Positions 281-34,922 of a stretch of 64,000 nucleotides of DNA are shown here, piece by piece; within the stretch, counting starts at the first letter, position 1; each line of letters begins with the position of its first letter. A program made the translations under genes and the position numbers. This stretch comes from a virus. The stretch lies in the IMG/VR virus record IMGVR_UViG_3300045988_037140, positions 11,143-75,142 of that record; one strand, given 5' to 3'. The notes below the pieces were generated by a model, which was given only the letters and a program-made list of their open reading frames with translations, had not been told where the DNA came from and did not search any database.

Positions 281-356
281 TGTCCTGTAGCTCAGCTGGC
301 AGAGCACGCGACTGTTAATCGTGGGGTCGAGGGTTCGAACCCCTCCGGGACAGCCA
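281..356 (+). tRNA. tRNA-Asn (GTT)
   Basis: Cloverleaf by hand. Acceptor tgtcctg/cgggaca; D-arm gctc-agctggca-gagc; anticodon loop ctGTTaa; T-arm gaggg-ttcgaac-ccctc; encoded CCA. Confidence 0.8.
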
Positions 357-407
357 AAGTCGATGTTTGAAGGAATCGTCGCGACTTTAACCCTAAACCT
401 TCAGTAT

Positions 408-490
408 GCGGGATTGGCGGAATGGTAGACGCGCTAGACTTAGGATCTAGTGTCTATGGCGTAAGGGTTCGAGTCCCTTATCCCGTACCA
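408..490 (+). tRNA. tRNA-Leu (TAG), type II
   Basis: Acceptor gcgggat/atcccgt; anticodon stem ctaga/tctag; loop ctTAGga; long variable arm; T-arm aaggg-ttcgagt-ccctt; CCA. Confidence 0.8.
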
Positions 491-628
491 ATGAGGCGTT
501 AACATGGATTTTGATTGGTAAACTACCACCGGCATCCAATGCGCGGCAATGCCAAGCAGCGAAGATATGTGGCTTAGTGGACAACGCCTGTCTAAATATA
601 AGAAAGCAAAGTAACCAATCGTGAATAT

Positions 629-715
629 GCGGCTATGTTGAAATCGGTAGACAAGCAAGCTTGAGGTGCTTGTGATCGAAAGGTCGTGTGAGTTCAAATC
701 TCACTAGCCGCACCA
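629..715 (+). tRNA. tRNA-Leu (GAG), type II
   Basis: Acceptor gcggcta/tagccgc; anticodon stem caagc/gcttg; loop ttGAGgt; long variable arm; T-arm gtgag-ttcaaat-ctcac; CCA. Confidence 0.75.
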
Positions 716-906
716 ATGAGTCTAATCCGCTCAAGTCATAAGGATTGGTGTCAACCGCTCACCTTACGCAGGTTGCCGATTGTGGGTGCAAGTTTGGAAA
801 CCCTCCCTGTGTCCACGGGATCTGGATAGTCTTTTGTTGTTTTATTACTTAAATAAAATTAACCGGTATAGCTTACCGTTAGAGGAGTGACTCTCCTTAA
901 GTATTT

Positions 907-983
907 GGTCTCGTAGTTCAGAAGAGTAGAACGCTAGCCTGTCACGCTAGAGGTCACGGGTTCAAGTCCCGTCGGGATCGCCA
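907..983 (+). tRNA. tRNA-Asp (GTC)
   Basis: Acceptor ggtctcg/cgggatc; D-stem gttc/gaac; anticodon stem ctagc/gctag; loop ctGTCac; T-arm acggg-ttcaagt-cccgt; CCA. Confidence 0.75.
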
Positions 984-1204
984 ATAAGAGAATATTGAAA
1001 CGGTTCAGGTCTTATCGGCCGTCTAGGCAGGCGAGGTAGAGTGAGGTAAGTTGCGGTGGAAATCCCTTGAATTAGCGTAAAAAAACCTACGCCTGAAATT
1101 CTGGAAGTGGAATTTTGCGAAGTCGGAGTAGCGTAAGCGTGTGGCTGAAATATGACCACCCGCCTAGACTTTAGTATTCTCTTTATTTGAAAAATAATAA
1201 ATAT

Positions 1205-1232
1205 TATGATATAATATTTATAGAAAGTAAGA
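1205..1232 (+). promoter_or_regulatory. phage consensus promoter (TGATATAAT + ATTTATAGAAAGTAAGAAAG)
   Basis: Motif copy; the transcript would begin at or into the AAGAC-clamped ncRNA module A. Confidence 0.5.
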
Positions 1233-1325
1233 AAGACACAGTACAGCAAGTTTTTTAATGGGATAATTCTTTTCTCGCCACGAAAATGATAACTGGTTCG
1301 AGTCCAGTGCAAAAACCTGTGTCTT
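1233..1325 (+). ncRNA. AAGAC-clamped tRNA-like ncRNA module A
   Basis: A 9-bp terminal clamp aagacacag/ctgtgtctt encloses a D-region (tacagcaa...), a hairpin ttttc-tcgccac-gaaaa, a T-arm actgg-ttcgagt-ccagt and an A/U acceptor-like pairing (tttttt/aaaaa). No CCA. It lies immediately after a promoter. Confidence 0.35.
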
Positions 1326-1334
1326 GCTGAATAT

Positions 1335-1425
1335 TGCCCCGTGGTGTAATGGTTAGCACGGCGGTCTCTAAAACCGTATCCCTCTGAAGGAGTAAGTCTG
1401 GGTTCGAACCCCAGCGGGGCTGCCA
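1335..1425 (+). tRNA. amber-suppressor tRNA (anticodon CUA, reads UAG), type II-like with Gln-like determinants
   Basis: Anticodon stem gcggt/accgt with a 7-nt loop ctCTAaa (U33, A37). T-arm ctggg-ttcgaac-cccag; acceptor tgccccg/cggggct with a U1-U72 mismatch; discriminator G73; CCA. The variable arm is 20 nt (ctct-gaa-ggag hairpin); D-arm gtgt-aatggtta-gcac. Confidence 0.7.
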
Positions 1426-1547
1426 GCAACACCTCCTGACATTTTTCGAGCGTTGTCGTTAACTAGAACTCGACCTCAGTGGTTTAATGTACGAGGTACT
1501 GGTAAGTGATGGTACTACCACTCTTCACTTTTCTCTATATATCTTAT

Positions 1548-1623
1548 GGGGCCTTAGCTCATCTGGGAGAGCGCCTGCCTTGCAAGCAGGAGGTGGCGGG
1601 TTCAAGTCCCGCAGGTTCCACCA
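1548..1623 (+). tRNA. tRNA-Ala (TGC)
   Basis: Acceptor ggggcct/aggttcc with the G3-U70 Ala identity pair; anticodon loop ctTGCaa; T-arm ggcgg-gttcaag-tcccgc; CCA. Confidence 0.85.
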
Positions 1624-1801
1624 AAGAGAAGTTTTTTTGGTTCTTCTCGGTTATATTAAATTAGTGATTATATTTGTTAAAAACCAGTTTAGGTTTGGTT
1701 TGATTACCCTTTTCTTTCCCCCTTATATAACGAAACGAAAACGGTAATGGTGCGTGACGCCGCGTTCCCTGAATAGCTTCGCAAGAAGAAGTGCGAGTTA
1801 T

Positions 1802-1878
1802 GGTCCCATCTACTAACTGGTCTAGGTAATCAGCCTCTCAAGCTGAAAATGTGAGTTCGAGTCTCGCTGGGATCACCA
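1802..1878 (+). tRNA. tRNA-Glu (CTC), atypical D-arm
   Basis: Acceptor ggtccca/tgggatc; anticodon stem tcagc/gctga; loop ctCTCaa; T-arm gtgag-ttcgagt-ctcgc; CCA. The D-arm is irregular. Confidence 0.5.
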
Positions 1879-1953
1879 CCTTACTTTTATCGCTTTTAGT
1901 AAGGAATCGAGACATTATTGCCCCAATAGACGGCTTTGTAGTCTATTTAATAT

Positions 1954-2028
1954 GCTCCCATGGACAAGTGGTTAAGTCCCCGCCCTTTCACGGCGGTGTC
2001 GTCAGTTCGATCCTGACTGGGAGTACCA
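1954..2028 (+). tRNA. tRNA-Glu (TTC)
   Basis: Acceptor gctccca/tgggagt; anticodon stem ccgcc/ggcgg; loop ctTTCac; T-arm gtcag-ttcgatc-ctgac; CCA. Confidence 0.75.
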
Positions 2029-2070
2029 TTAACAATAGGAAATATACATAGATGAAAAGGAGAAGATATT

Positions 2071-2307
2071 ATGAAGCAGGTTCACGGTACTTTCGATTCT
2101 TTTAAGACTCTGGGTGCGGCAATGGGCTTTAAGGCTCCTAAGGTCAAGGAGAAGGAGCATAAGTGCCCCAATTGCGGTGGCGTGATGGAGCGAGCTGGCG
2201 ACTCCAATGTTTTTGTTTGTCCTTTCAATAAGCTGGAAGAGCGTGACCTGAAGGGTAAGCCGGTGCAGGTGTTTAGCAAGTGCGGTAAGTTTGTTATCGC
2301 TGATTAA
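2071..2307 (+). CDS. small zinc-ribbon protein (CPNCGG...CPFN...C)
   Basis: 78-aa ORF with RBS aaaggagaag; Cys4 pattern; embedded in the tRNA array. Confidence 0.45.
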   Translation: MKQVHGTFDSFKTLGAAMGFKAPKVKEKEHKCPNCGGVMERAGDSNVFVCPFNKLEERDLKGKPVQVFSKCGKFVIAD

Positions 2308-2344
2308 CATATTGACCTGAGTAAGTCGGTAAACTGCTCTTTAT

Positions 2345-2420
2345 ATCGCGGTAGCTCAGTTGGTAGAGCGGCAGGTTGAAGCCCTGCGCGTCGCTGGTTC
2401 AAGCCCAGCCCGCGGTGCCA
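2345..2420 (+). tRNA. tRNA-Phe (GAA)
   Basis: Acceptor atcgcgg/ccgcggt; D-arm gctc-agttggtaga-gagc; anticodon loop ttGAAgc; T-arm gctgg-ttcaagc-ccagc; CCA. Confidence 0.85.
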
Positions 2421-2495
2421 TTGCGGTGGTGGAGCAACGGTAGCTCACTAGCCTCATAAGCTAGAGACGACGTTCGAATCGTCCGACCGCAACCA
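2421..2495 (+). tRNA. tRNA-Met/Ile2/fMet family (CAT), irregular acceptor
   Basis: D-arm gagc-aacggta-gctc; anticodon stem ctagc/gctag; loop ctCATaa; T-loop ttcgaat. The acceptor pairing needs one mismatch or an offset. Confidence 0.55.
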
Positions 2496-2517
2496 TAGGC
2501 ATAAAGCCATTATGGGT

Positions 2518-2634
2518 AAGACGCACACAGCAAATTTTTTCTTTTGAAAAATATTTTAGCTCATTGGTAGAGCATCAAACTGTTAATTTGACTGTAGCTG
2601 GTTCAAATCCGGCAAATAATTTTCTTTGCGTCTT
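2518..2634 (+). ncRNA. AAGAC-clamped module F enclosing an AT-rich tRNA-like (Asn GTT-like) element
   Basis: Clamp aagacgca/tgcgtctt with an acagcaaa box just after the 5' strand. It encloses the cloverleaf at 2550-2621. Confidence 0.4.
2550..2621 (+). tRNA. tRNA-like Asn (GTT) with an all-A/U acceptor stem (A2-A71 mismatch), no CCA
   Basis: D-arm gctc-attggta-gagc; anticodon stem tcaaa/tttga; loop ctGTTaa; T-arm gctgg-ttcaaat-ccggc; acceptor aatattt/aaataat. Confidence 0.45.
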
Positions 2635-2743
2635 GTAAAATTAAATAAGGAGGTTATTTTCTATGTTCCAAGACATTGATGACATGATCTTTGCTGATGT
2701 AGAACCCACGATTAGTGAGAAGTAAACATCATGTCCTTTATAT

Positions 2744-2835
2744 GTCGGGTTGGCTGAGTGGCTTAAAGCAGCAGTTTGCTAAACTGTCGACCGTGGAAAC
2801 GCGGTCCGAAGGTTCGAATCCTTCACCCGACGCCA
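2744..2835 (+). tRNA. tRNA-Ser (GCT), type II
   Basis: Acceptor gtcgggt/acccgac; anticodon loop ttGCTaa; long variable arm; T-arm cgaag-gttcgaa-tcctt; CCA. Confidence 0.8.
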
Positions 2836-3138
2836 GGGAAATGAGGAATAAACTCCGTAGAACAAAGAGTAAGTCTTTAGGATATGCTGTGCCTGCACAG
2901 AAATCTATTAGTGGTACTGATGCCTAAGTACACGGTGCGGAGGCCACCAAGAGGAAATAGCTGACGTGAAAAGCGTCTTGTCTTGCTGACATGACAATAA
3001 ACTTTGAACGGGTCGCTTAATGCGGGATTCGTGCCTGCGGGTGTAAAGTCAGAAAAGTAGGGGTATGCAGTTTGAAATCTGCAGGAGTAGCTATCGGTGA
3101 ATCCCCACCTCCACCGTCCCTTAAAATTCAAATAATAT

Positions 3139-3214
3139 GCTGGCATAGCTCAGTTGGTAGAGCTACTGATTTGTAATCAGTGGGTTGGGAGTTCGAGTCT
3201 CTCTGTCAGCTCCA
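3139..3214 (+). tRNA. tRNA-Thr (TGT)
   Basis: Acceptor gctggca/tgtcagc; anticodon stem actga/tcagt; loop ttTGTaa; T-arm gggag-ttcgagt-ctctc; CCA. Confidence 0.8.
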
Positions 3215-3345
3215 TAGGCTTAGGAAGTAGCCTACAACTTCCACAAGGCGTGAAATCGCTCTAGCGACGAAACGGATATTACCAATTGGTAGTAGCACGG
3301 TATCTAATGATGCCCTATATCGGTGCTGTGCACCGATATAGATAT

Positions 3346-3422
3346 GTCCCTTTAGCTTAGTTGGACAAAGCGTGCGGCTACGAACCGCAAGACCGGGAGT
3401 TCGAGTCTCTCAAGGGATGCCA
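3346..3422 (+). tRNA. tRNA-Arg (ACG)
   Basis: Acceptor gtccctt/aagggat; D-stem gctt/aagc; anticodon stem tgcgg/ccgca; loop ctACGaa; T-arm gggag-ttcgagt-ctctc; CCA. Confidence 0.8.
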
Positions 3423-3423
3423 T

Positions 3424-3500
3424 GTGGCTGTAGCTCAGTTGGTTAGAGCACTTGATTGTGGCTCAAGTTGTCGTGGATTCGAATTCCACCAGTCACCCCA
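3424..3500 (+). tRNA. tRNA-His (GTG), no encoded G-1
   Basis: Acceptor gtggctg/cagtcac; anticodon stem cttga/tcaag; loop ttGTGgc; discriminator C73; CCA. The nucleotide at position -1 is T, not G. Confidence 0.8.
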
Positions 3501-3566
3501 CGAGACCCAAACAGCAATTTTCAATCATATGTTTTTGGTACATACAAGATGAAAGGGGTCTAGAAA

Positions 3567-3718
3567 TGAATAAGAAGATTTACAAGCAAGCTATGAAGAA
3601 AACTGGCGATGAACTACAAGAGTGGCTTCAGTTCAAGCATCGAGGATCTTCTGTGCAAGCTAAGAAGGGAAAAGGTTCCTATTCCCGCAAACAAAAGCAT
3701 AAAGATAGGGAGTGTTGA
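3567..3718 (+). CDS. hypothetical small basic protein
   Basis: ATG with RBS gaaagggg; 50 aa; Lys-rich. Confidence 0.4.
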
Positions 3719-3720
3719 GT

Positions 3721-4035
3721 ATGTCTCGTTCTTATCGAAAACAGCCTGTTTGGAAAGATCATAATCGGGGTATGAAAGCGATGGCCAATCGAAAAGTGCG
3801 GCGGGCGCTTAACCGAGATGCTAATTTTGAGTTACCCAATTCTCTCTATAAAAGATACTTTTGTCAATATGACATTTGTGACTATTGTTTTCTTGTTTCT
3901 CGTAGCTTTGAGCAGTTTTATCAAAGTCGTATTAGAAACTGGAAAGAGCGTAGATATTATTGGTTCTGGAAAGATCAGCCATATCCTACGAGAAAAGAAG
4001 TTTACAAGGATTGGCTTAATTATCGTGGTAAATAA
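3721..4035 (+). CDS. hypothetical protein
   Basis: ATG after RBS ggag; 104 aa; no recognisable motif. Confidence 0.4.
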   Translation: MSRSYRKQPVWKDHNRGMKAMANRKVRRALNRDANFELPNSLYKRYFCQYDICDYCFLVSRSFEQFYQSRIRNWKERRYYWFWKDQPYPTRKEVYKDWLNYRGK

Positions 4036-4112
4036 GCGGCTATCGCCTAATGGATATGGCAACAGCCTTCTAAGCTGTCACAATCTGAGTTCGAATCTCA
4101 GTAGCCGTACCA
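4036..4112 (+). tRNA. tRNA-Arg (TCT)
   Basis: Acceptor gcggcta/tagccgt; anticodon stem acagc/gctgt; loop ctTCTaa; T-arm ctgag-ttcgaat-ctcag; CCA. Confidence 0.8.
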
Positions 4113-4116
4113 ATAT

Positions 4117-4462
4117 GGGGGTATAAAGGTTTCGACGGGGCATTGAGAAGTTAGAACACACGGGTAGGCGACCTCCTTACGGCGCAACAAACAATTAACT
4201 GACAACAATTATTTTGATTCTCACATGGCAGCTTGAGCTTTTGCTCGCTGACCATTAACTGTATACCTCTGGTTTCTTTGTTTTCCTTCTAAAAATAAAG
4301 TGGTGGATGCGTTGTACTTATAACCGGTACGGCCCTATAGTTTAGTTAGTTTGTTCTTGACTTGTGGCTCTATTCAAAAGCTATAAATAAGGACTATCGT
4401 GTAAGAATGTTCTGATTAAGTAGATGTTTCGGACACGGGTTCGACTCCCGTTACCTCCACCA
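4117..4462 (+). ncRNA. ssrA: tmRNA (SsrA), phage-encoded
   Basis: 5' end gggggtataaaggtttcgacgggg and 3' end tttcggacacgggttcgactcccgttacctccacca match the canonical tmRNA ends (GGGG...GGUUUCGACGGGG ... UUCGGACGCGGGUUCAACUCCCG...CUCCACCA). The acceptor gggggta/tacctcc pairs. Candidate tag ORF: ...DNNYFDSHMAA followed by TGA. Confidence 0.75.
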
Positions 4463-4467
4463 AACTT

Positions 4468-4544
4468 GTCCGCTTAGCTCAGCTGGCTAGAGCAACCGAC
4501 TCTTAATCGGTGGGTCCAGAGTTCGAATCTCTGAGTGGGCACCA
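4468..4544 (+). tRNA. tRNA-Lys (CTT)
   Basis: Acceptor gtccgct/agtgggc; anticodon stem accga/tcggt; loop ctCTTaa; T-arm cagag-ttcgaat-ctctg; CCA. Confidence 0.8.
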
Positions 4545-4548
4545 ATAT

Positions 4549-4638
4549 GCGGGGATGGCCGAGTGGTTGATGGCGCCAGTCTAGAAAACTGGAGGCCCAG
4601 CAATGGGTCCGGGAGTTCGAATCTCTCTCCCCGCGCCA
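4549..4638 (+). tRNA. tRNA-Ser with anticodon AGA (A34), type II
   Basis: Ser-like D-arm gcc-gagtggttgat-ggc; anticodon stem ccagt/actgg; loop ctAGAaa; long variable arm; T-arm gggag-ttcgaat-ctctc; acceptor gcgggga/tccccgc; G73; CCA. Confidence 0.6.
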
Positions 4639-4642
4639 GTAT

Positions 4643-4719
4643 AGTTTGGTAGCTCAGTTGGTTAGAGCACTCGATTGATAATCGAGAGGTCGTGAGTTCA
4701 AGTCTCACCCAGACTACCA
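4643..4719 (+). tRNA. tRNA-Ile (GAT)
   Basis: Acceptor agtttgg/ccagact; anticodon stem ctcga/tcgag; loop ttGATaa; T-arm gtgag-ttcaagt-ctcac; CCA. Confidence 0.8.
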
Positions 4720-4781
4720 TTTGGAGATATTTCTTTAATTTAATTATCTTTTTCTTTATAAGTATTGAGGAAGGTGATAAA

Positions 4782-5642
4782 ATGAAGATTTATAATCCAA
4801 TTAACTATTCCTATATCACTGTTGTAGAAATTCCAAAGACAGAGATTTCAAAGTTCGATATGGCGCTATGTCAACAGCCTCGTTAGACTTTGAAAGCCTA
4901 CTATGATAGTTGCGCTGTTAAGCCTTCTATCGTTTCCAATGGTGGTTTCTTCAGCATGACTGATGGTTCAACAGCCTTTAACTATACCGATGAAGGTATA
5001 ATCATTAGTTCTAATTCTCTTTACAAAGAAGGATTTGGAACTGTCAATGGAGAGTTAAAGTACGGTGTAATTGGTCAAGAGAAGTTTGAGGACTTCGTAA
5101 GTGGCTATCCAGTCTTAATTAAGGCGGGCGCCGCAGTTCCTATTACTATTGCTTCCGAGATTAACTACAAGGCTAGAAGAACTATTCTAGCTTATAATAA
5201 AGAAAATATCTTTATTGTAGCTATTGAATCTCCGGGCATGAACTTCTCACAAATGCAATCTTTCTTGCGGACTCTCAAGGTTGACTACGCTATTAACCTT
5301 GATGGAGGCGGAAGTACCAAGATATTGCATGATGGCAAGTGTATCACAAAGGCGCTTGCTAATCGTCCTGTTGATAATATAATGGCTGTTTATCTAAAGC
5401 CAAAAGTTATTTACAGAGTATAGCTTGGTGCATTTAGCAAGAAAGCTAATGCAGATGCATTTTTAGCTAAAATCAAGGCTCTTCCTGATACTATCAATGC
5501 AGGATATAAGAATGCTTATGTTCGCAAGGTTGGTAGTTATTGGAAGGTTCAAATTGGTGCGTTCTCTGTGAAAGCTAACGCAACACGAGTTGTAAATGAT
5601 CTAAAGAGTAAGGGCTATAATGCCTTCATTACGACAACTTGA
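4782..5642 (+). CDS. phosphodiester-glycosidase-like (NAGPA/DUF2233-type, ...INLDGGGS...) protein with a C-terminal SPOR domain; two in-frame TAG codons
   Basis: ATG at 4782 with RBS gaggaaggtga. In-frame TAGs at 4884 and 5421 join the ORF-track pieces 4692-4886 and 4890-5423 to a C-terminal extension ending at TGA 5640-5642. The extension contains two SPOR-type repeats, RV*LGAFS and KVQIGAFS. Confidence 0.55.
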
Positions 5643-5657
5643 TTTTCTAAAAATATT

Positions 5658-5685
5658 TTGTTATAATATTTATAGAAGATAAGAG
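5658..5685 (+). promoter_or_regulatory. phage consensus promoter
   Basis: tgttataat + atttatagaagataagag motif immediately upstream of ncRNA module B. Confidence 0.5.
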
Positions 5686-5791
5686 AAGACGCTTGCCGCA
5701 ACCACTACTATTGTAATAGTCAAAAGGTTAAGACATTTCTCTACAAAAGAAACAATTTGGGTTCGATTCCCAATTACACAAAAGGCGTCTT
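5686..5791 (+). ncRNA. AAGAC-clamped tRNA-like ncRNA module B
   Basis: Clamp aagacgc/gcgtctt. Interior: hairpin tttct-ctacaaa-agaaa (anticodon-arm-like), T-arm ttggg-ttcgatt-cccaa, and a 5-bp A/U acceptor-like pairing tgtaa/ttaca. No CCA. Confidence 0.35.
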
Positions 5792-5833
5792 GTTATGGTC
5801 AGCCCGTAAGACCTTAAATGGCGGGACACCTAT

Positions 5834-5909
5834 CCGGGTGTAGCGCAGTTGGTAGCGCGCCTGATTTGGGTTCAGGAGGCCCAGAGTTCGAATCTCTGCA
5901 CTCGGACCA
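5834..5909 (+). tRNA. tRNA-Pro (TGG)
   Basis: Acceptor ccgggtg/cactcgg; D-arm gcgc-agttggta-gcgc; anticodon loop ttTGGgt; T-arm cagag-ttcgaat-ctctg; CCA. Confidence 0.85.
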
Positions 5910-5947
5910 ATCCCCATTTGGTGGGGACTATGTATCACTCCTTTCCT

Positions 5948-6100
5948 ATGTTATATAAAGACCTATACAGCAAATCTTTCTTTACTAATAGAAGAAGATA
6001 TAATGATTAGCAAGTCATTGCTGCCAGACGTCGAGATAGCTCTTTAGAACGAAGACAGGCGAGAGCTATGGAGTCATAAGTCTAAGTTTTCGTGGGTCTT
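5948..6100 (+). ncRNA. AAGAC-clamped ncRNA module E (no obvious T-arm)
   Basis: 5' aagacctatacagcaaa shares the acagcaa box with modules A, D and F. The 3' end gggtctt pairs with the 5' end. The interior has stems but no TPsiC-like loop. Confidence 0.25.
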
Positions 6101-6103
6101 GAA

Positions 6104-6150
6104 ATGTTATAATATTTTTGTTATAATATTTATAGAAAGTTAAGAAAGGA
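6104..6150 (+). promoter_or_regulatory. tandem phage consensus promoters (two TGTTATAAT boxes) + leader/RBS
   Basis: tgttataat(6106), tgttataat(6118), atttatagaaagttaagaaaggaag, then ATG at 6161. Confidence 0.5.
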
Positions 6151-6160
6151 AGTAAATGGT

Positions 6161-6346
6161 ATGAAGAAAATTGATATGGGTTGCTACTACTTTTCCGACA
6201 AGGGTTTGGTTCGTACAGTTGCCAGAGCAACAGATATGGAGACGAAGAAGTCGATGATTATGTTCGTTAACATTGAATCTGGCGGGTGTGCAAGTCAGCC
6301 TCTTTTAATTTCTGAGGAGAAGTTTGCGGCGACTTACATCAGGTAA
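6161..6346 (+). CDS. hypothetical protein
   Basis: 61-aa ORF directly behind the promoter and leader. Confidence 0.4.
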   Translation: MKKIDMGCYYFSDKGLVRTVARATDMETKKSMIMFVNIESGGCASQPLLISEEKFAATYIR

Positions 6347-6353
6347 GTCGTAT

Positions 6354-6430
6354 GCGGGATTAGCTCAGCAGGTTAGAGCATTTGCCTTACAAGCAAGGGG
6401 TCACAGGTTCGAGTCCTGTATCCCGTACCA
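6354..6430 (+). tRNA. tRNA-Val (TAC)
   Basis: Acceptor gcgggat/atcccgt; anticodon stem tttgc/gcaag; loop ctTACaa; T-arm acagg-ttcgagt-cctgt; CCA. Confidence 0.85.
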
Positions 6431-6702
6431 GCGTTGGGAGCGCTACAGTGGTCACACACAAAAACTGCCTTAGAACAAATAAACAAAAGCTAAGGTGAGG
6501 AATTTAACCGCCTAAATGAAGGGTTATGATTTAGAATAAGACGCTAGCCAGCAATTTTATTTTCTATAAAGAAAGTTTATACAGAGGATTGTGAAGAATC
6601 ATCTATGATCGCCGTTTGGCTAGTTCTCCTGGGGTAAGAGAGAGTTAATTGACAGAAGAGCGAATGTAAATTGATTAAAACTCTTTAGCGTCTTGATTAT
6701 TT

Positions 6703-6778
6703 AGCGGTGTTGCGAAGTGGTTAACGCGCATGGCTTTGACCCATGTATTCGAAGGTTCGAACCCTTCCACCGCTGCCA
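6703..6778 (+). tRNA. tRNA-Gln (TTG)
   Basis: Acceptor agcggtg/caccgct (A1-U72, G73); anticodon stem catgg/ccatg; loop ctTTGac; T-arm gaagg-ttcgaac-ccttc; CCA. Confidence 0.8.
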
Positions 6779-14901: not shown

Positions 14902-14958
14902 AGAATTTAATCTCCCTTGTCCAAGGGAGTAACTAAAAATCAAAAGGAGATTGATACG

Positions 14959-16449
14959 ATGAATACTTTTATGAACGCTATGAAGCAAGATACCAACTTT
15001 ACCTTGACTGAGAATGGCGCAGTTACCCATAAGTCCACTCTGAATGGTCTTATGGATTTGTTCGCGCTCGGCGGAGCATACCGCACTCGTTCTGATGCAG
15101 ATTGTATCACTTTGTTCAAGGCGGCCTTTGACGAGGATGAAGCTCATGCTTTAAAGTGCCTGTTCTATCTGCGTGATGTGCGCGGCGGCCAGGGTGAGCG
15201 TCGTTTCTTCCGCGTTGTGACCAACTGGCTTGCTTCTCACGAGACTGAAGCCATGCGTCGTAATCTCCAGTTTGTGCCTGAGTACGGTCGCTGGGACGAC
15301 CTGTATATCTTCGTTGGCACTCCTCTGGAGAAGGACGCTTTCAATTTGATGCGCCATCAGCTGGCTTTGGATGTCTCTTGCAAGACTCCTTCTCTGCTCG
15401 CTAAGTGGCTGAAGTCTGAGAATACCAGCTCTAAGGAATCTCGCCATCTGGCGGTGATTACTCGCAATCATTTTGGCATGACCGCAAAACAGTACCGCAA
15501 GACTCTCTCTACTCTGCGTGAGCGTATCCGCATCGTTGAGCGCCTCATGTCTGAGAATCGGTGGGACGAGATTGAGTTTGACAAGATTCCTTCTCGTGCC
15601 GGCGTAATTTATCGCAATGCGTTTGCTCGCCGCGATATGATTAAGGCTAAGTATGAGGCTTTCGCTAAGGATACTGAGACTAAGGTTAATGCCAGTGCTC
15701 TCTATCCTCACGACATTGCACATCGTGCCTTTGAAGCCAATCGTAAGGGATTGGGCGATCCTGATCGTCTGATGCTTCAGAAGTATTGGGAGAACCTTCC
15801 TAACTACTACGGTGATAATATCGAGAATGGCATTGCTGTTGTCGATGTTTCTGGCTCTATGACCGGTGTTCCTATGGAGGCTGCGGTCTCTATGGGTGCG
15901 TATATCGCAGATAAGGCGCACGGTCCTTTTGCCAACCACTTCATTACCTTCTCTGGTCATCCTGAGCTGGTGAAGTTCGAGGGGGCAGACATTACCGATA
16001 AGTTGTGCCGTTGCATTGGTGCAGATTGGGGTATGAACACTAATATCGAAGCTGTCTTCGATATGCTGCTCAACACCGCGATGAAGCAAAGTGTAAAGCC
16101 TGAGGATATGCCTACTCGCGTCTACATCTTCTCTGATATGGAGTTTGACAAGTGTGTTACCAGTAACTCTACTGATCGGGGTGGCTGGGGGTATGGTATG
16201 CACAGCGATGCCATCCAGACTCTCTTTGAGGCTATGAAGGCTAAGTGGGCACGCTACGGTTACAAGATGCCTAGCTGCATCTTCTGGAACCTGAACGCCC
16301 GCAATAACAACATTCCCGCAATCGGTGACGGCTTTAGCTATGTAAGTGGTTTTAGCCCTGTTATGATTCAGCAGATTCTCAGCGGCAAGGACGGACTCGA
16401 TCTGATTCTTGAGAAGCTGGACAGCGAGCGTTATGCTCAGATTCACTAA
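14959..16449 (+). CDS. vWA-domain protein with Ro60/TROVE-like architecture (helical N-terminal part + C-terminal vWA MIDAS DVSGSM)
   Basis: ATG 14959 after aaaaggaga. MIDAS motif IAVVDVSGSMTG, later FSGHP and FSDMEFD. The N-terminal ~300 aa look helical. The following genes are an AAA+ MoxR ATPase and an unknown protein. Confidence 0.5.
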   Translation: MNTFMNAMKQDTNFTLTENGAVTHKSTLNGLMDLFALGGAYRTRSDADCITLFKAAFDEDEAHALKCLFYLRDVRGGQGERRFFRVVTNWLASHETEAMRRNLQFVPEYGRWDDLYIFVGTPLEKDAFNLMRHQLALDVSCKTPSLLAKWLKSENTSSKESRHLAVITRNHFGMTAKQYRKTLSTLRERIRIVERLMSENRWDEIEFDKIPSRAGVIYRNAFARRDMIKAKYEAFAKDTETKVNASALYPHDIAHRAFEANRKGLGDPDRLMLQKYWENLPNYYGDNIENGIAVVDVSGSMTGVPMEAAVSMGAYIADKAHGPFANHFITFSGHPELVKFEGADITDKLCRCIGADWGMNTNIEAVFDMLLNTAMKQSVKPEDMPTRVYIFSDMEFDKCVTSNSTDRGGWGYGMHSDAIQTLFEAMKAKWARYGYKMPSCIFWNLNARNNNIPAIGDGFSYVSGFSPVMIQQILSGKDGLDLILEKLDSERYAQIH

Positions 16450-16454
16450 ACCCT

Positions 16455-16500
16455 CTCAAACGGGGAAATGGCAAGAAAATTGCCATTTCCCCGTCTTTTC
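16455..16500 (+). terminator. rho-independent terminator
   Basis: ggggaaatggcaa-gaaaa-ttgccatttcccc followed by gtcttttc. Confidence 0.5.
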
Positions 16501-16521
16501 TATTTATTGAAAAATAATTTA

Positions 16522-16560
16522 ATTTATGATATAATAAATATATAAGGTAAGGAAAGGAAG
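16522..16560 (+). promoter_or_regulatory. phage consensus promoter + leader
   Basis: tttatgatataataaatatataaggtaaggaaaggaag. Confidence 0.45.
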
Positions 16561-16568
16561 TTACATAG

Positions 16569-17465
16569 ATGCTATATCCATATCCAGCTGGAATGCCATT
16601 CCCAAGTTTGTTTACGTCTTCATTTGAACCGCCAGCGCAATCTGCTTCTGATTATTCTCTATATCGAGAAGATTTTGGTAGCATTTACAGTTTACTGAAT
16701 ACTATCAATAACCGTGAAAACAATAGCTTCATGCGTAACGAAGATTCGTCTCAGGAACGTGGAAATGAAGAGTGGAGTGGTACATCTTCTTATGAAGAAG
16801 CTCAATCTCTCTTGATTCATGGCTATGAAGATCCGGTTAAAAATATCAAGAGCAGCTTAGCTAAAAATAAGAAACTGACAAGTAAAATCTACAATTCAAT
16901 TCCTAAGCCCATAGTCCAAAATAGAGTGGTAGGATTTGTTCCAAATGTACCCAATGCTCTTAAAGGACTGCCGGAATCTATGATTACACTGGAAAAACTC
17001 CATAAGAAGAGAAAGACCATCTCTATTATCTATGCTACAGGCGGTAGCTGTGGCGTAGAAAGTGATGTTCTGGCATCTGCGGGTGCGGCGCTTGTATCCG
17101 CCATCAACCTCATTGAGTTGTCCGGTGTGCAAACTGAATTGTCGGTTGGTTTTATGCCTACGAAAGAAACTAAGCAGATTATTTTTCCAACTGTGAAGAT
17201 TAAAGGCTATGGCGAACGCTTTAACTTGCAGAAAATCTGCTTTCCGATGATTCATCCTGCGATGTTTAGACGAATTGGTTTTAAGTACCTTGAAACTTGT
17301 CCTGGTATGGTAGAAAATTTTTCTCATGGGTATGGCCGTCCGCCTGAGCTTGAAGTTTTGAAGACTCTTATCAAGGATAAAAATACCTATGTGATTAACC
17401 GTGCGTGGATTACTGAACATGAAAATGATATTGAAGAAATTCTTAAATATATGGAGGTCTGCTGA
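16569..17465 (+). CDS. hypothetical protein (partner of the vWA / MoxR pair)
   Basis: 298 aa; no motif recognised; lies between the vWA and MoxR genes in the same transcription unit. Confidence 0.4.
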   Translation: MLYPYPAGMPFPSLFTSSFEPPAQSASDYSLYREDFGSIYSLLNTINNRENNSFMRNEDSSQERGNEEWSGTSSYEEAQSLLIHGYEDPVKNIKSSLAKNKKLTSKIYNSIPKPIVQNRVVGFVPNVPNALKGLPESMITLEKLHKKRKTISIIYATGGSCGVESDVLASAGAALVSAINLIELSGVQTELSVGFMPTKETKQIIFPTVKIKGYGERFNLQKICFPMIHPAMFRRIGFKYLETCPGMVENFSHGYGRPPELEVLKTLIKDKNTYVINRAWITEHENDIEEILKYMEVC

Positions 17466-17466
17466 T

Positions 17467-18426
17467 ATGAATAGAGATAAGATGCTCGAAGCGATGATGA
17501 AGGCGGTGACTGATGCGGTCGTCGACGTGAATGTGGAAGAAATTCTGGCGAAAGTGTATCCTCAGATTGATGAGAAAATTCACGAGACTTATGGTTTCCT
17601 GCCGGAGGTTCATGAAGTGCGGACGCCGACTGCAACCCATAAGATCTGTGGCACTACGCATGAGAAGTTTGACGAGGTTCTCAATATTGTCAATCTGGAT
17701 ATCCCCGTTTATCTGACTGGCAAAGCGGGCACCGGCAAGAACGTCATTTGTCAGCAGGTTGCGGAAGCTCTGGGTCTGGATTTTTACTTCACCAACGCCG
17801 TTACGCAGGAGTACAAGCTGACTGGCTTCATTGATGCCAACGGTAATTATCAGGAAACCCAGTTTTATAAAGCTTTTACGAAGGGTGGTCTGTTCTTCTT
17901 GGACGAGATGGACGCATCTATCCCTGAGACTCTGATTATTTTGAACGCGGCCATCGCGAATAGATACTTCGATTTCCCCAACGGCAAAGTTAGTGCGAAC
18001 CCTAACTTTAGAGTCATCGCTGCTGGTAATACGGTTGGTACCGGTGCAGATAATAACTACACTGGTCGCTATTGCTTGGATAGAGCAAGTCTTGACCGTT
18101 TTGCTATGGTGAATATCGACTACTCTGAAAAGATTGAGATGGCTATGGCAGATAATAACAAGAATCTGGTATCTTTCTGCCATCGTTTCAGAGAGATTAC
18201 CGATAAGGCTGGCATCGAGTGTCTGTTCTCCTATCGTACTATTGATAGAATTGCGAAACTCGAAACGGTAATCAGCAATCTGTCCGAGGTTCTGTCTATC
18301 TCGCTGCTTAAGGGCATGGACGAGGATACCTTGTCTATTCTTAAGAACGAATTGTCTGAAGCTAAGGATATGACAAATAACAAGTATGCGAAAGCTATTA
18401 TCAATGGTAATAGCTGGGATTTTTAA
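17467..18426 (+). CDS. MoxR-like AAA+ ATPase (AAA_5: GKAGTGKN, FLDEMDA)
   Basis: ATG 17467 after ggaggt. Walker A LTGKAGTGKNVI, Walker B LFFLDEMD, sensor AAGNTVG. Confidence 0.65.
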   Translation: MNRDKMLEAMMKAVTDAVVDVNVEEILAKVYPQIDEKIHETYGFLPEVHEVRTPTATHKICGTTHEKFDEVLNIVNLDIPVYLTGKAGTGKNVICQQVAEALGLDFYFTNAVTQEYKLTGFIDANGNYQETQFYKAFTKGGLFFLDEMDASIPETLIILNAAIANRYFDFPNGKVSANPNFRVIAAGNTVGTGADNNYTGRYCLDRASLDRFAMVNIDYSEKIEMAMADNNKNLVSFCHRFREITDKAGIECLFSYRTIDRIAKLETVISNLSEVLSISLLKGMDEDTLSILKNELSEAKDMTNNKYAKAIINGNSWDF

Positions 18427-20054: not shown

Positions 20055-20357
20055 ATGGGAAAAATTACTCGTCATAGCAAAGAGCGCATTGTTCAGAGGA
20101 CTGAGGGATGTGAGAGTTTCGCAGAAGCTAAGAAGTTAGCTAAGCAAGCTAAGCGATCTGGTGCAACTATAAATCAGTTTCAGAAGTTCCCTAAGTTCTT
20201 CTCGTATCTTCAGAACAAGAGAAACCAGACTAATACCTGTTCTATTAGAGTTTATCGAGGCAACATTTATATCTGGCGTGGCAAAGATACATTGATTACC
20301 GCGCATCCTATCCCCGAAAGATATATTAAAGAAATGGAGGCTATTGGCGATGACTGA
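20055..20357 (+). CDS. hypothetical protein
   Basis: 100 aa. Confidence 0.35.
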   Translation: MGKITRHSKERIVQRTEGCESFAEAKKLAKQAKRSGATINQFQKFPKFFSYLQNKRNQTNTCSIRVYRGNIYIWRGKDTLITAHPIPERYIKEMEAIGDD

Positions 20358-21147
20358 TGTTATGAGTAGAGTCCATGACCATCTCGATGAAAGTTTGCAG
20401 AGGTTTGACGAATCAAGAATCGTCGGTATCTTCTTGCAAGGCTCTCAGAACTATGGTCTTGAAACTCCTAAGAGCGATGTTGATACGAAGCTGATTGTTA
20501 CTCCTACTTTTGATGAAGTGGTTCTTAACAAGAAGCCTATCAGCACCACTCATGTAAGAGCAAACAACGAGCATACCGATCTGAAGGATATTCGATTGAT
20601 GCTCGCCACCTTCCGCAAACAGAATCTCAACTTCATTGAAATTCTCTTTACCCCTTATGCTTGGGTAAACCCTCTTTTTGAAAGTGAATGGGGTCGTCTG
20701 ACTGCGGCGCGCGAGCAGATTGCTCACTACTCTCCATATGGCGCAGTTAAGACCATGAAGGGTATCGCTATGGAGAAATATCATGCTATGGAGCATGAAT
20801 ATCCTAGCAAATTGGAAGTACTAGCCGAGTATGGCTACGATCCAAAACAGCTCCATCATCTCCTGCGGGTTCAGGAGTATATCCATAGATACATCAGCGG
20901 TGAATCCTATGAAGCGTGCCTGCATCCTAAGCGTCCTGAGTTTCTTGTAGCTGTTAAACAGGGGTATTTTAACCTTGAGCAGGCCCGCACTTCCGCGGAT
21001 GCGGCTATTGCTGACGTAATTGAAACTGCGGACGCCTTCTGTGAAAAAGTTGGTAAGACTTTCGATACCGCAGTTGATGAACTGCTTGATGATGTGCAGT
21101 ATAATATCGTAAAAAGTGCATTGAAAGGAGAGATTCTAAGTGATTAA
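20344..21147 (+). CDS. pol-beta-superfamily nucleotidyltransferase (GS-x12-DVD motif)
   Basis: GIFLQGSQNYGLETPKSDVDTKLIVTP is the classic minimal NTase signature. A helical C-terminal domain follows. Confidence 0.5.
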   Translation: MAMTDVMSRVHDHLDESLQRFDESRIVGIFLQGSQNYGLETPKSDVDTKLIVTPTFDEVVLNKKPISTTHVRANNEHTDLKDIRLMLATFRKQNLNFIEILFTPYAWVNPLFESEWGRLTAAREQIAHYSPYGAVKTMKGIAMEKYHAMEHEYPSKLEVLAEYGYDPKQLHHLLRVQEYIHRYISGESYEACLHPKRPEFLVAVKQGYFNLEQARTSADAAIADVIETADAFCEKVGKTFDTAVDELLDDVQYNIVKSALKGEILSD

Positions 21148-21934
21148 GAACTGGCTCGTTACAGGAGATACTCATGGTCAAGTCCTTGAGAGACTTAGTC
21201 ACATTGGGTACCCTCCTGATGAAACTGCGTTGATTATCCTTGGTGATATGGGTCTTAATTTCTATCTAAATAAGACCGACCAGAAGAACAAGAGGAATGT
21301 CAATGCAACCGGATTCCGCATTTATGCAGTTCGTGGCAACCATGAAGAGCGTCCAGAAAACCTTTTCATGGAGCAGATGTATGACGAAGATATTGATGGC
21401 GGAGTATATTATGAGCCAGAGTTTCCGAATATCAGATACCTCTTTGATGGAGAGAGTTATAACATTCATGGCTACTCTGTCCTTGTTATCGGCGGAGCGT
21501 ATTCCGTAGATAAGTGGTATCGACTTAGAGATCGTCCAGAAGATACAGATAGTTGGACTGGCTGGTTCAAGGATGAACAGCTAACCAAAAAGGAAATGGA
21601 TGAAATTGGCGCATGGGTTGAGGGTAAGCGTTATGATTTTGTCCTAACCCATACTTGTCCCATTTCTTGGGAGCCAAGAGATTTGTTTCTCTCTGGTCTT
21701 GACCAATCCAAAGTAGATAAAAGTATGGAACTTTGGCTTGAGGATATCAAGAGTAAAGTTGATTGGGAGGTATGGCTCTGCGGCCACTACCATGACGATC
21801 GGTTAATCCGGCCCGGCGCAGAAATGTACTTCCACGACATTGAATCTCTTGATACAATTTGGGAGCGTTGGCAAGATCCTGAGAGCCTTGACTGGTGGTT
21901 GAAGAAGGATCCAAACTACTATATGGGTAGATAA
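21140..21934 (+). CDS. metallophosphoesterase (calcineurin-like: GDTHG, GDMG, GNHE)
   Basis: Motifs I-III of the MPE fold. Confidence 0.65.
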   Translation: MIKNWLVTGDTHGQVLERLSHIGYPPDETALIILGDMGLNFYLNKTDQKNKRNVNATGFRIYAVRGNHEERPENLFMEQMYDEDIDGGVYYEPEFPNIRYLFDGESYNIHGYSVLVIGGAYSVDKWYRLRDRPEDTDSWTGWFKDEQLTKKEMDEIGAWVEGKRYDFVLTHTCPISWEPRDLFLSGLDQSKVDKSMELWLEDIKSKVDWEVWLCGHYHDDRLIRPGAEMYFHDIESLDTIWERWQDPESLDWWLKKDPNYYMGR

Positions 21935-33430: not shown

Positions 33431-33664
33431 GTGGTTTTATTGGTAAATATTTTAATTGGAGTTCTCCTTATCACAGTAGGTGCCACCTTACTCAATAGTA
33501 TTAGTGAAATTATAAGTGCTATTACAGAACTTATTAAAGCTAATATAAATGAAAGGATTGTTCGTCACAATGTTACGATTAATAAACTTAGTGAAGGAGA
33601 AACTCAATCTAGTGCAATCGGATTTGCCACTACATACGAAGAGGAAGATGAACATGAACTATGA
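33431..33664 (+). CDS. small membrane protein
   Basis: GTG start; 77 aa. Confidence 0.3.
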   Translation: MVLLVNILIGVLLITVGATLLNSISEIISAITELIKANINERIVRHNVTINKLSEGETQSSAIGFATTYEEEDEHEL

Positions 33665-34922
33665 TGTACGGTTTCCAACAGATAGATACTTCTACGATAC
33701 TTGCTCCCTTTTGTTGGCCGGAGAAAGTCTATTTGAGCAGGACAAGAAGCCCTTCTTAGTTTCCTCAATTACATTAAAAGAATTAGAGAGAATTAAGACG
33801 GCTTCAAATAAGGATGCTGACATCAAGTATTCAGCTCGTCTATTGCTTCATTTGTTTGAAGAATATCCAGATAAGTATGAAGTAATCCCGCACAAAGTAG
33901 ACAATGAGTCCGTAATTAAAGAAGCGGGTTTCGATGTTACTGATGATACTCGCATCTTGTCTGATGCCATTGCGTGCGACAAAGAAAAAGATATTGTCTT
34001 TGTAACTAACGATTTAAGTCTAAAGCATATCGCTAACTGCTTCTTTGGTAATGGAATGATTGAGAGCGTTCCAGAAGAAGTAGACGATTATACTGGTTAT
34101 ATTGAAGTTACTTATAGCGACGAAGCTCTAGCAGAGTTTTATCAGAACCCGAACGATAATTCCTTTAACCTATTACCAGGACAGTATCTTATCCTGAAAA
34201 ATAGCAATGGAGAGATTGTTGATTTGCGGGTTTGGACAGGCGAAGAGTTCAGATACCTTTCTTCTAAGACCATTAACTCTAAGTGGTTTGGTAAGATTTC
34301 TCCATACTCTGGAGATATTTATCAGAAGATGCTATTTGATAGTTTGCGTAATAACAAGCTAACTCTTGTTAAAGGTCCAGCTGGTAGCGGTAAGACTTTC
34401 GTTTCTCTGGCTTACTTAATGGCAAAAATGGAAGCCCATGAACTAGATAAAATTATTATCTTCTGCAATACTGTTGCTACTGCTAACTCTGCTCGTCTCG
34501 GATATTATCCGGGAACAAAAGATGAAAAGCTACTTGACTCTCAGATTGGTAACTTACTAAGTAGTAAGTTTGGTGGTCGAGAGGAAGTTGAGAGACTGAT
34601 CGCAGAAGGTAAATTAGTTTTACTACCATTCTCTGATATTCGTGGTTATGATACTTCTGGTATGAACGCAGGTATCTATATTTCTGAAGCTCAGAACCTT
34701 GACCGCACACTAATGAAACTCGCTCTACAGCGTGTTGGTGAAGATTGTATTTGTATTATTGATGGTGATGAAAAAACTCAAGTTGATGACATTCACTTCT
34801 CTGGTGCAAATAACGGTATGCGGAGGGTATCAAAAGTATTCAGAGGTAAGAATATTTATGGAGAGGTAACTCTTAAGAATATCTATCGTAGTGAGATTGC
34901 GTCTATCGCTGATAAAATTTAA
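33648..34922 (+). CDS. PIN-domain + PhoH-like ATPase (PhoH2-type, GPAGSGKT)
   Basis: ATG 33648. N-terminal PIN-like acidic residues; Walker A LVKGPAGSGKTFV; PhoH core. Confidence 0.6.
   Translation: MNMNYDVRFPTDRYFYDTCSLLLAGESLFEQDKKPFLVSSITLKELERIKTASNKDADIKYSARLLLHLFEEYPDKYEVIPHKVDNESVIKEAGFDVTDDTRILSDAIACDKEKDIVFVTNDLSLKHIANCFFGNGMIESVPEEVDDYTGYIEVTYSDEALAEFYQNPNDNSFNLLPGQYLILKNSNGEIVDLRVWTGEEFRYLSSKTINSKWFGKISPYSGDIYQKMLFDSLRNNKLTLVKGPAGSGKTFVSLAYLMAKMEAHELDKIIIFCNTVATANSARLGYYPGTKDEKLLDSQIGNLLSSKFGGREEVERLIAEGKLVLLPFSDIRGYDTSGMNAGIYISEAQNLDRTLMKLALQRVGEDCICIIDGDEKTQVDDIHFSGANNGMRRVSKVFRGKNIYGEVTLKNIYRSEIASIADKI

Follow-up and report, generated by a model that had tools for sequence, protein, structure and literature searches.

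A gut phage tRNA-His gene lacking an encoded G-1 and a bacterial-type Thg1-like protein within an RNA-repair island

Without G-1, the main identity element for HisRS, histidylation of tRNA-His falls to ~1% or by more than 100-fold (PMC3245924; PMC5499578). In bacterial pre-tRNA-His, the shift of the RNase P cut to position -1 has been ascribed to the G-1:C73 pair (PMC3245924; PMC5499578). In archaea, a missing encoded G-1 goes systematically with the presence of Thg1, and Caulobacter belongs to a small alphaproteobacterial clade whose tRNA-His is without G-1 (PMC3245924). A characterized bacterial relative of Thg1 is the Thg1-like protein (TLP) of Bacillus thuringiensis (BtTLP), which adds exactly one templated G opposite C73 of tRNA-His with a kcat/KM of 5500 M-1 s-1, equal to that of yeast Thg1 on its natural substrate, and is 5-160x more efficient when the tRNA, whatever its identity, is truncated at the 5' end (PMC3061083). 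BtTLP prefers GTP for the activation of full-length tRNA-His (PMC3701042), and in the archaeal MaTLP a second, His-anticodon-dependent binding mode serves G-1 addition (PMC4820378). Overall, the chemistry of bacterial-type TLPs is well described, but no biological substrate is established for them, since G-1 is already encoded in the bacteria that own them. A simple natural test of maturation in vivo versus repair only is therefore offered by a phage in which a TLP accompanies a G-1-less, C73-bearing tRNA-His.

Phage TLPs and their presumed role in repair are already in the literature. Thg1 has been noted among the sporadic 5'-end restoring enzymes of jumbo phages (PMC7824862), and the TLP gene of Bacillus phage Bc431v3 has been remarked on as unusual (PMC3601020). 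On tested phage Thg1, the searchable literature offers annotations and one review remark only. It likewise holds no account of a phage G-1-less tRNA-His paired with a TLP, of the wider absence of G-1 from phage tRNA-His, or of how such tRNAs would be charged by a G-1-dependent HisRS.

Here, we describe such a pairing in a 64,000-nt stretch of a viral metagenomic record (IMG/VR IMGVR_UViG_3300045988_037140, positions 11,143 to 75,142), referred to as the window. The phage is ~147 kb and not a jumbo phage, and megablast of the window returned no near-identical phage in GenBank. Its closest isolate by protein is Fusobacterium phage Fnu1, whose TLP is 46.7% identical and whose gene order is similar (TLP, prohibitin, RNase H, helicase, ligase). 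Hundreds of near-identical copies of the TLP occur in gut metagenomes, on contigs of ~145-150 kb. Also present in the window are genes for a Pol III alpha subunit, for gyrase A and B, for the anaerobic ribonucleotide reductase NrdD, and for an amidase/endolysin with an SLH domain.

The preliminary description of this DNA reported a tRNA-His gene with C73 and a T at position -1, and the ARAGORN call, the Rfam tRNA model, and direct reading all bear this out (Table 1). The gene folds as a textbook, perfect cloverleaf by ARAGORN and direct reading, with a 7-bp acceptor stem (GTGGCTG/CAGTCAC) in which G1 (3424) pairs with C72 (3496), a discriminator C73 at 3497, and an encoded CCA at 3498-3500. 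Position -1 is T3423, the sole spacer base between the CCA of the upstream tRNA-Arg(ACG) and G+1; it cannot pair with C73, and no G-1 is encoded. A shifted register that takes G3424 as G-1 was rejected, as the 3' strand CAGTCAC pairs solely in the ARAGORN register, and direct reading gave no G-1:C73 pair in any alternative register of this tRNA.

Table 1. Position and supporting evidence of the tRNA-His gene, its upstream neighbor, the Thg1-like protein, and surrounding RNA-repair genes in the window.
Feature	Position	Strand	Evidence
tRNA-Arg(ACG), CCA encoded at 3420-3422	3346-3422	+	ARAGORN; Rfam tRNA 62.2 bits; sequence
Spacer T, position -1 of tRNA-His	3423	+	Sequence; same base in related contigs
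tRNA-His(GTG), C73 and CCA, without encoded G-1	3424-3500	+	ARAGORN; Rfam tRNA 66.7 bits (3424-3497)
RlaP-type (RNA repair pathway) Pol-beta nucleotidyltransferase	20344-21147	+	Pfam PF10127 2.8e-5
Calcineurin-like metallophosphoesterase	21140-21934	+	Pfam PF00149 6.4e-9
RNA ligase	23551-24819	+	Pfam PF09414 1.6e-9; weak TIGR02306; beside TLP in relatives
Metallophosphoesterase	25857-26600	+	Pfam PF00149 1.6e-10
Metallophosphoesterase	26594-27325	+	Pfam PF00149 2.7e-5
Thg1-like protein, bacterial/archaeal TLP type, 276 aa	27964-28794	+	Pfam PF04446; 4kgk match; family alignment
P-loop kinase, polynucleotide-kinase/PSTK type (AAA_33)	29978-30496	+	Pfam PF13671 4.7e-17; weak NCBIfam bacterial Pnkp, PSTK
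Metallophosphoesterase, ORF ends at TAG	30511-31071	+	Pfam PF00149/PF12850
PIN-PhoH protein, after the repair island	33549-34922	+	Pfam PF02562, PF13638

The T at -1 extends to related phages. An anticodon stem-loop scan recovered nine IMG/VR contigs from the family of this phage. Each reads ...GGGATGCCA-T-GTG[G/A]CTG..., and one of the nine features a compensatory G4-to-A change in the stem that replaces a G-U pair with A-U. A tenth, more distant contig (L033, 182 kb) also has the T (...CCA-T-GTGACTG). Retention of this base in at least ten related metagenomic contigs (L006, L010, L017, L021, L026, L027, L028, L030, L032, and L033) indicates that it is not an assembly accident. Seven of the nine family contigs recur in the TLP scan, six with TLPs 94-97% identical to that of the window and one with a TLP 69% identical.

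The tRNA-His gene is part of a dense array. ARAGORN called 33 RNA genes on the + strand in the first 15 kb of the window, namely 32 tRNAs and one tmRNA. Nearly all of the tRNAs encode CCA, and several are only 1-4 bases apart (Phe/Met, Arg/His, Lys/Ser/Ile, and Met/'taaa'). Across this array (281-14765), 28 of the 32 tRNA calls have T at -1, mostly within an AT leader; the T-1 of tRNA-His is therefore the phage's generic RNase P leader.

The array holds several unusual members. A tmRNA (4117-4462; Rfam 100 bits; tag peptide DNNYFDSHMAA) is flanked by tRNA-Arg(TCT), 4 nt upstream, and by tRNA-Lys, 5 nt downstream. Three nucleotides downstream of a tRNA-Met, a tRNA-like gene (8450-8523; Rfam tRNA 42.5 bits) with an encoded CCA features an 8-nt anticodon loop, to which ARAGORN assigns the 4-base anticodon 'taaa'; it could act as a suppressor, either of frameshifts or ochre-related, or could be degenerate. 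Two atypical calls, 'Asn gtt' and 'Cys aca' (2549-2622 and 5709-5782), have neither CCA nor the usual AT leader, and 'Cys aca' matches the Rfam tRNA model at positions 3-68 only; these may be pseudogenes or mis-assigned tRNAs.

The phage also makes use of in-frame TAG, with the sites and a suppressor tRNA at 1335-1425, 35353-36390, 52351-54006, and 4890-5642. In two genes, Pfam domains cross a single in-frame TAG. One encodes the Amidase_2-SLH endolysin and the other a RecJ-like DHH protein, in which the codon directly follows the DHH motif. A third gene has an NAGPA domain, a TAG, and then a SPOR domain. The suppressor tRNA(CUA) of the array, labeled 'Pyl' by ARAGORN, is 91 nt in length; its variable arm is long, it has G73 and mismatched U1.U72, and its CCA is encoded. 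It looks Ser-like by its type II shape and G73, which, if true, would depart from the usual TAG-to-Gln recoding of gut phages.

The second element of the pairing lies 24.5 kb downstream of tRNA-His on the same strand. It had been recognized as a Thg1-like protein by the motifs RIDGKAFHTFT and SDEITLIL; both are present, and profile and structure searches confirm the assignment. The protein matches the Pfam Thg1 family with 103.6 bits (cutoff 29.2; E 9.9e-30) over profile positions 3-130 of 130, and its best match among solved structures is BtTLP, over the full length at E 1.8e-58. The match to the Thg1C domain is weak (19.3 bits, under the cutoff of 26.3). Matches to archaeal MaTLP and eukaryotic Thg1 are far weaker than that to BtTLP (E 5e-10 to 4e-7), with human and Candida Thg1 at 3e-8 to 4e-7. 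Identity with BtTLP is ~45% over the aligned parts as a rough reading of the alignment rather than a computed value, and the phage protein features an insertion of ~35 aa (residues 124-158) that varies among relatives.

Eight residues of the active site are shared with BtTLP and are invariant or nearly so in 11 relatives in the family alignment. These include the two-metal carboxylates, D34, D79, and E80 (BtTLP D30, D75, and E76), and the NTP-site residues K47, S78, R32, K103, and R164 (BtTLP K43, S74, R28, K99, and R131); the BtTLP counterparts have been described as metal ligands and as activation and transfer-site residues (PMC3701042). The ATG at 27964 agrees with the N termini of TLP homologues, and a longer, TTG-initiated ORF was rejected because its N terminus is out of line with them. 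A eukaryotic-type Thg1 was ruled out, as the HINNLYN position reads TNLVYWRQ and the match to human and Candida Thg1 is weak. By these sequence comparisons, the phage protein groups with the TLP branch of the Thg1 superfamily and not with eukaryotic Thg1.

The TLP gene is embedded in a cluster of RNA-repair genes at 20.3-31.1 kb that also contains RlaP, an RNA ligase, a P-loop kinase, and five calcineurin-type phosphoesterases. As in a phage RNA-repair cassette, genes for a ligase, an end-healing kinase, and phosphoesterases are clustered. The neighborhood is kept in the close family and is partly recognizable in a distant relative that encodes G-1. In this relative, also a gut phage (IMG/VR 3300031555_003080), genes for an RNA ligase, a kinase, phosphoesterases, and an SPFH protein accompany the TLP. 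In Xanthomonas phage XacN1, 4 kb separate the TLP from an RNA ligase, and the TLP of Aeromonas phage 4L372D adjoins a tRNA nucleotidyltransferase. Many other gut phages harbor the TLP in unrelated contexts, such as beside the anti-Thoeris gene Tad4 and replication genes. Overall, the gene neighborhood of the TLP points to RNA repair as its conserved role.

Two further observations concern these neighborhoods. In a large group of gut phages of ~150 kb with TLPs ~65% identical to that of the window, the TLP lies 1.3 kb downstream of a homologue of the Thoeris inhibitor Tad4 (e.g., IMG/VR 3300029388_000241; L050 8251-8670) and beside replication genes, outside any RNA-repair island. In the window, the repair island is preceded by a trio of genes (14917-18426) encoding a DUF2828/DUF7788 protein, a DUF7192 protein, and an AAA_5 (MoxR-like) ATPase.

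The preliminary description further implied that the phage carries Thg1 because its tRNA-His lacks G-1, a claim that can be set against other phages. By matching contig names between scans and adding single GenBank records, we read tRNA-His in seven TLP-carrying phage lineages. G-1 is missing in two of these, the family of the window (T-1, C73) and the Bastillevirinae Bacillus phages QCM8, Emiliahah, and Bc431v3 (C-1, A73). It is encoded in the other five, represented by the related gut phage 3300031555_003080 (TLP 65% identical), Bacillus phage G, Burkholderia phage FLC9, Xanthomonas phage XacN1, and Fusobacterium phage Fnu1, which has G-1 but A73. As a background, two IMG/VR pattern scans blind to position -1 yielded 108 distinct tRNA-His sequences, 106 of them interpretable. 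About 13 of the 106 (~12%) are truly without G-1, all 13 with T at -1, and the G-1-less share is ~15% in loci with at least five tRNAs. Relative to this background, G-1-less tRNA-His is not enriched among TLP-carrying phages (two of seven lineages versus ~12%; one-sided Fisher p ~0.18 for two of six lineages, before Fnu1 was added, versus 13 of 106). The two features co-occur in the close family, but their co-occurrence is not systematic across phages.

Phages with no sign of a TLP likewise carry G-1-less tRNA-His. T5 and its relatives have a T-1, C73 gene of this kind, and the organism lists from the TLP searches include none of the 115 Escherichia and 232 Salmonella phage records with a T5-type tRNA-His. 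Among Bacillus phages, Tsamsa and Nate harbor the Bastille-type G-1-less tRNA-His by direct reading, and JBP901 and BCP8-2 match it closely, including the leader, from the match alone; the 44 Bacillus TLP records include none of these four phages. The T-1 also occurs in the T4-like Serratia phage CHI14 and in Vibrio phages nt-1 and D479, which were not counted as TLP-free. The persistence of G-1-less tRNA-His in TLP-free phages suggests that a TLP is evidently not required for keeping such genes. Together with the five TLP lineages that encode G-1, it gives no support to the view that a missing G-1 on tRNA-His is the reason for phages to have TLPs.

Among the best 80 of 378 IMG/VR TLP loci, no tRNA-His was found within 10 kb of the TLP; Lak-A1 has no tRNA within 20 kb of its TLP; and the 40 kb read around the TLP of Aeromonas phage 4L372D contain tRNA-Thr only and no tRNA-His. 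TLPs are annotated in 162 GenBank phage records, and their carriers include phages of the alphaproteobacterial hosts Caulobacter, Brevundimonas, and Sinorhizobium.

The survey also documents the variety of phage tRNA-His. G-1-less genes that keep C73 and have T-1 occur in the gammaproteobacterial phages T5 (L001), Proteus phage Stubb (L349), CHI14 (L002), nt-1 (L348), and D479 (L345), and clear IMG/VR loci of the same type are L130, L144, L221, L227, L235, L264, L267, L277, and L292. The Bacillus phage design features C1:G72, A73, no CCA, and C or A at -1 behind the leader ...TTAGTTT(C/A), and is common to TLP-carrying myoviruses (L346, L347, and L350) and TLP-free large siphoviruses (Tsamsa, L351; Nate, L352). 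In Fnu1 (L356 3067-3141), G-1 faces A73 and is unpaired, as in eukaryotes.

We lean toward a model, built by analogy with BtTLP, in which the phage TLP primarily repairs tRNA 5' ends and, in addition, places G-1 opposite C73. The tRNA-His would be transcribed from the + strand array with a leader ending ...A(-2)U(-1). As no pair can form between U-1 and C73, host RNase P would be expected to use its ordinary cleavage site; this would leave a pG+1 tRNA-His with an unpaired C73-CCA and no G-1, probably a poor substrate for HisRS. The conserved job of the TLP would be the template-dependent rebuilding of damaged tRNA 5' ends together with the ligase, kinase, phosphoesterases, and RlaP, and the RNase P product would be a substrate of the BtTLP enzyme class too. 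As with BtTLP and MaTLP, the enzyme would activate the 5' phosphate with GTP or ATP, add one C73-templated G, and stop, thereby restoring the G-1:C73 identity element; the 5' start, T-GTGGCTG in the genome, would become G-GTGGCTGTAGCTCAG. Retention of all catalytic residues, combined with the known activity of BtTLP, makes G-1 addition biochemically well founded. Weighing against the model are the lack of enrichment of G-1-less tRNA-His among TLP-carrying phages, the survival of such genes in TLP-free phages, and, for the analogy itself, the rough figure of only ~45% identity with BtTLP and the ~35-aa insertion.

The same model could account for the loss of the encoded G-1. One related phage has a TLP and still encodes G-1, which suggests that the enzyme preceded the loss; in the lineage of the window, the loss would then be secondary and would have been tolerated since the TLP was already there. 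Of the two functions originally put forward for the enzyme, G-1 addition and 5'-end repair, both stay viable given BtTLP chemistry, the conserved residues, and the repair island, but the implied reasoning that the absent G-1 accounts for the presence of Thg1 is not borne out by the other phages. A further function, mitochondrial-style mismatch editing of the 5' ends of other phage tRNAs, was considered and set aside: only the suppressor tRNA has a 1:72 mismatch, and no 5'-trimming enzyme is evident.

A stronger form of the model is that this gut-phage family has shifted its tRNA-His maturation to an archaeal/eukaryote-style route, in which RNase P cuts at +1 and the phage's own TLP supplies G-1 as an obligatory step. 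We regard this only as a tentative proposal. If true, this would be the first case of a bacterial-type TLP with a natural and obligatory substrate in tRNA-His maturation.

Alternatively, the TLP could act in repair only, rebuilding tRNA 5' ends damaged during infection (e.g., by host nucleases), with the G-1-less tRNA-His a coincidence and used without G-1 at low or adequate efficiency. This explanation is possible, if rather doubtful, and draws on much of the comparative evidence: TLP-free phages of the T5-like and Tsamsa-like types must use such a tRNA, five of seven TLP-carrying lineages encode G-1, and 4L372D combines a TLP with no tRNA-His in the region read. Phages of alphaproteobacterial hosts carry TLPs as well, among them phages of Caulobacter, whose tRNA-His is without G-1 (PMC3245924), and both the location of the TLP within an RNA-repair island and the preference of BtTLP for truncated substrates (PMC3061083) fit a dedicated repair enzyme. 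Against it, enzymes of the BtTLP class efficiently add G-1 to C73-bearing tRNA-His, the substrate would be in the same cell, and the reaction would be hard to avoid. The tRNA has also kept C73, so templating stays possible.

The remaining explanations fare far worse. One is that the host has a Caulobacter-type HisRS without need for G-1, so that an encoded or added G-1 would be irrelevant. This is very unlikely: the known systems are limited to a small alphaproteobacterial clade and use a G-1-less tRNA-His with A73, as opposed to C73 here. NrdD, the SLH-bearing endolysin, the gut-metagenome relatives, and synteny with a Fusobacterium phage also argue against such a host, as does the related phage that encodes G-1. 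What speaks for it is that such HisRS enzymes exist (PMC3245924).

Equally improbable is that RNase P cuts between A-2 and U-1, so that U-1 is retained and the extra 5' phosphate gives partial recognition by HisRS. Such retention could explain why every clear G-1-less tRNA-His in the two IMG/VR scans has T-1 and never A or C, but the Bacillus phage type from GenBank, with C or A at -1, is an exception to this pattern. Moreover, T-1 is the generic leader of 28 of 32 tRNAs in the array, and U is the base that bacterial RNase P prefers directly 5' of its cut. The cleavage shift in bacteria is also attributed to the G-1:C73 pair itself (PMC3245924; PMC5499578). Finally, a decaying or non-translational copy (decoy or pseudogene), to which the missing G-1 and the degenerate look of the nearby 2549-2622 and 5709-5782 calls might point, is scarcely credible for a gene with a 66.7-bit covariance score and a perfect cloverleaf with CCA that is kept in relatives with a compensatory stem change.

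More broadly, a sizeable minority of phage tRNA-His, including that of T5, is without the main HisRS identity element and has no obvious route to restore it. This bears on the purpose of phage tRNAs and on how well they are charged. It is possible that the recurrent loss of the encoded G-1, seen in T5-like, T4-like, and Bacillus phages among others, is deliberate and has been solved in more than one way.

Among known systems, T5-like, T4-like (Winklervirus), and Tsamsa-like tRNA-His are likewise without an encoded G-1, and those of T5 and CHI14 share T-1, C73, and CCA; unlike the window phage, the T5-like and Tsamsa-like phages have no detectable TLP (the T4-like phages are not included in this TLP-free set). 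Similarly, the clustering of a ligase, a Pnk-like kinase, phosphoesterases, RlaP, and a TLP resembles phage tRNA repair as represented by T4 Pnkp and Rnl1 and by the RlaP, CCA-adding, and Thg1 enzymes of jumbo phages (PMC7824862), and the presumed purpose, restoring tRNAs damaged in phage-host conflict, would be the same. It differs in its five calcineurin-type phosphoesterases, its separate kinase, and its occurrence in a ~147-kb, non-jumbo phage.

Among cellular systems, eukaryotic Thg1 (yeast and human) likewise adds G-1 post-transcriptionally to an RNase P product with G+1 as its first base, but the eukaryotic G is non-templated, is placed opposite A73, and is strictly ATP dependent, and the HINNLYN motif of the eukaryotic enzyme contrasts with TNLVYWRQ in the phage protein. 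With the archaeal route, the phage shares the combination of C73, no encoded G-1, and a TLP-type enzyme, and a templated G-1 after a canonical RNase P cut would be expected; co-occurrence is systematic in archaea but not among the phages sampled here. BtTLP (4kgk) is the closest characterized homologue of the phage protein. It has the same metal-binding carboxylates and activation and transfer-site residues, and, by analogy, the chemistry expected of the phage enzyme is templated 3'-5' addition, including a single G opposite C73 and the repair of 5'-truncated tRNAs. The phage protein differs in being phage-encoded and in its variable ~35-aa insertion. The substrate differs as well: B. thuringiensis encodes G-1 and so presents no obligatory maturation substrate to its TLP, whereas the phage genome contains a G-1-less tRNA-His with C73.
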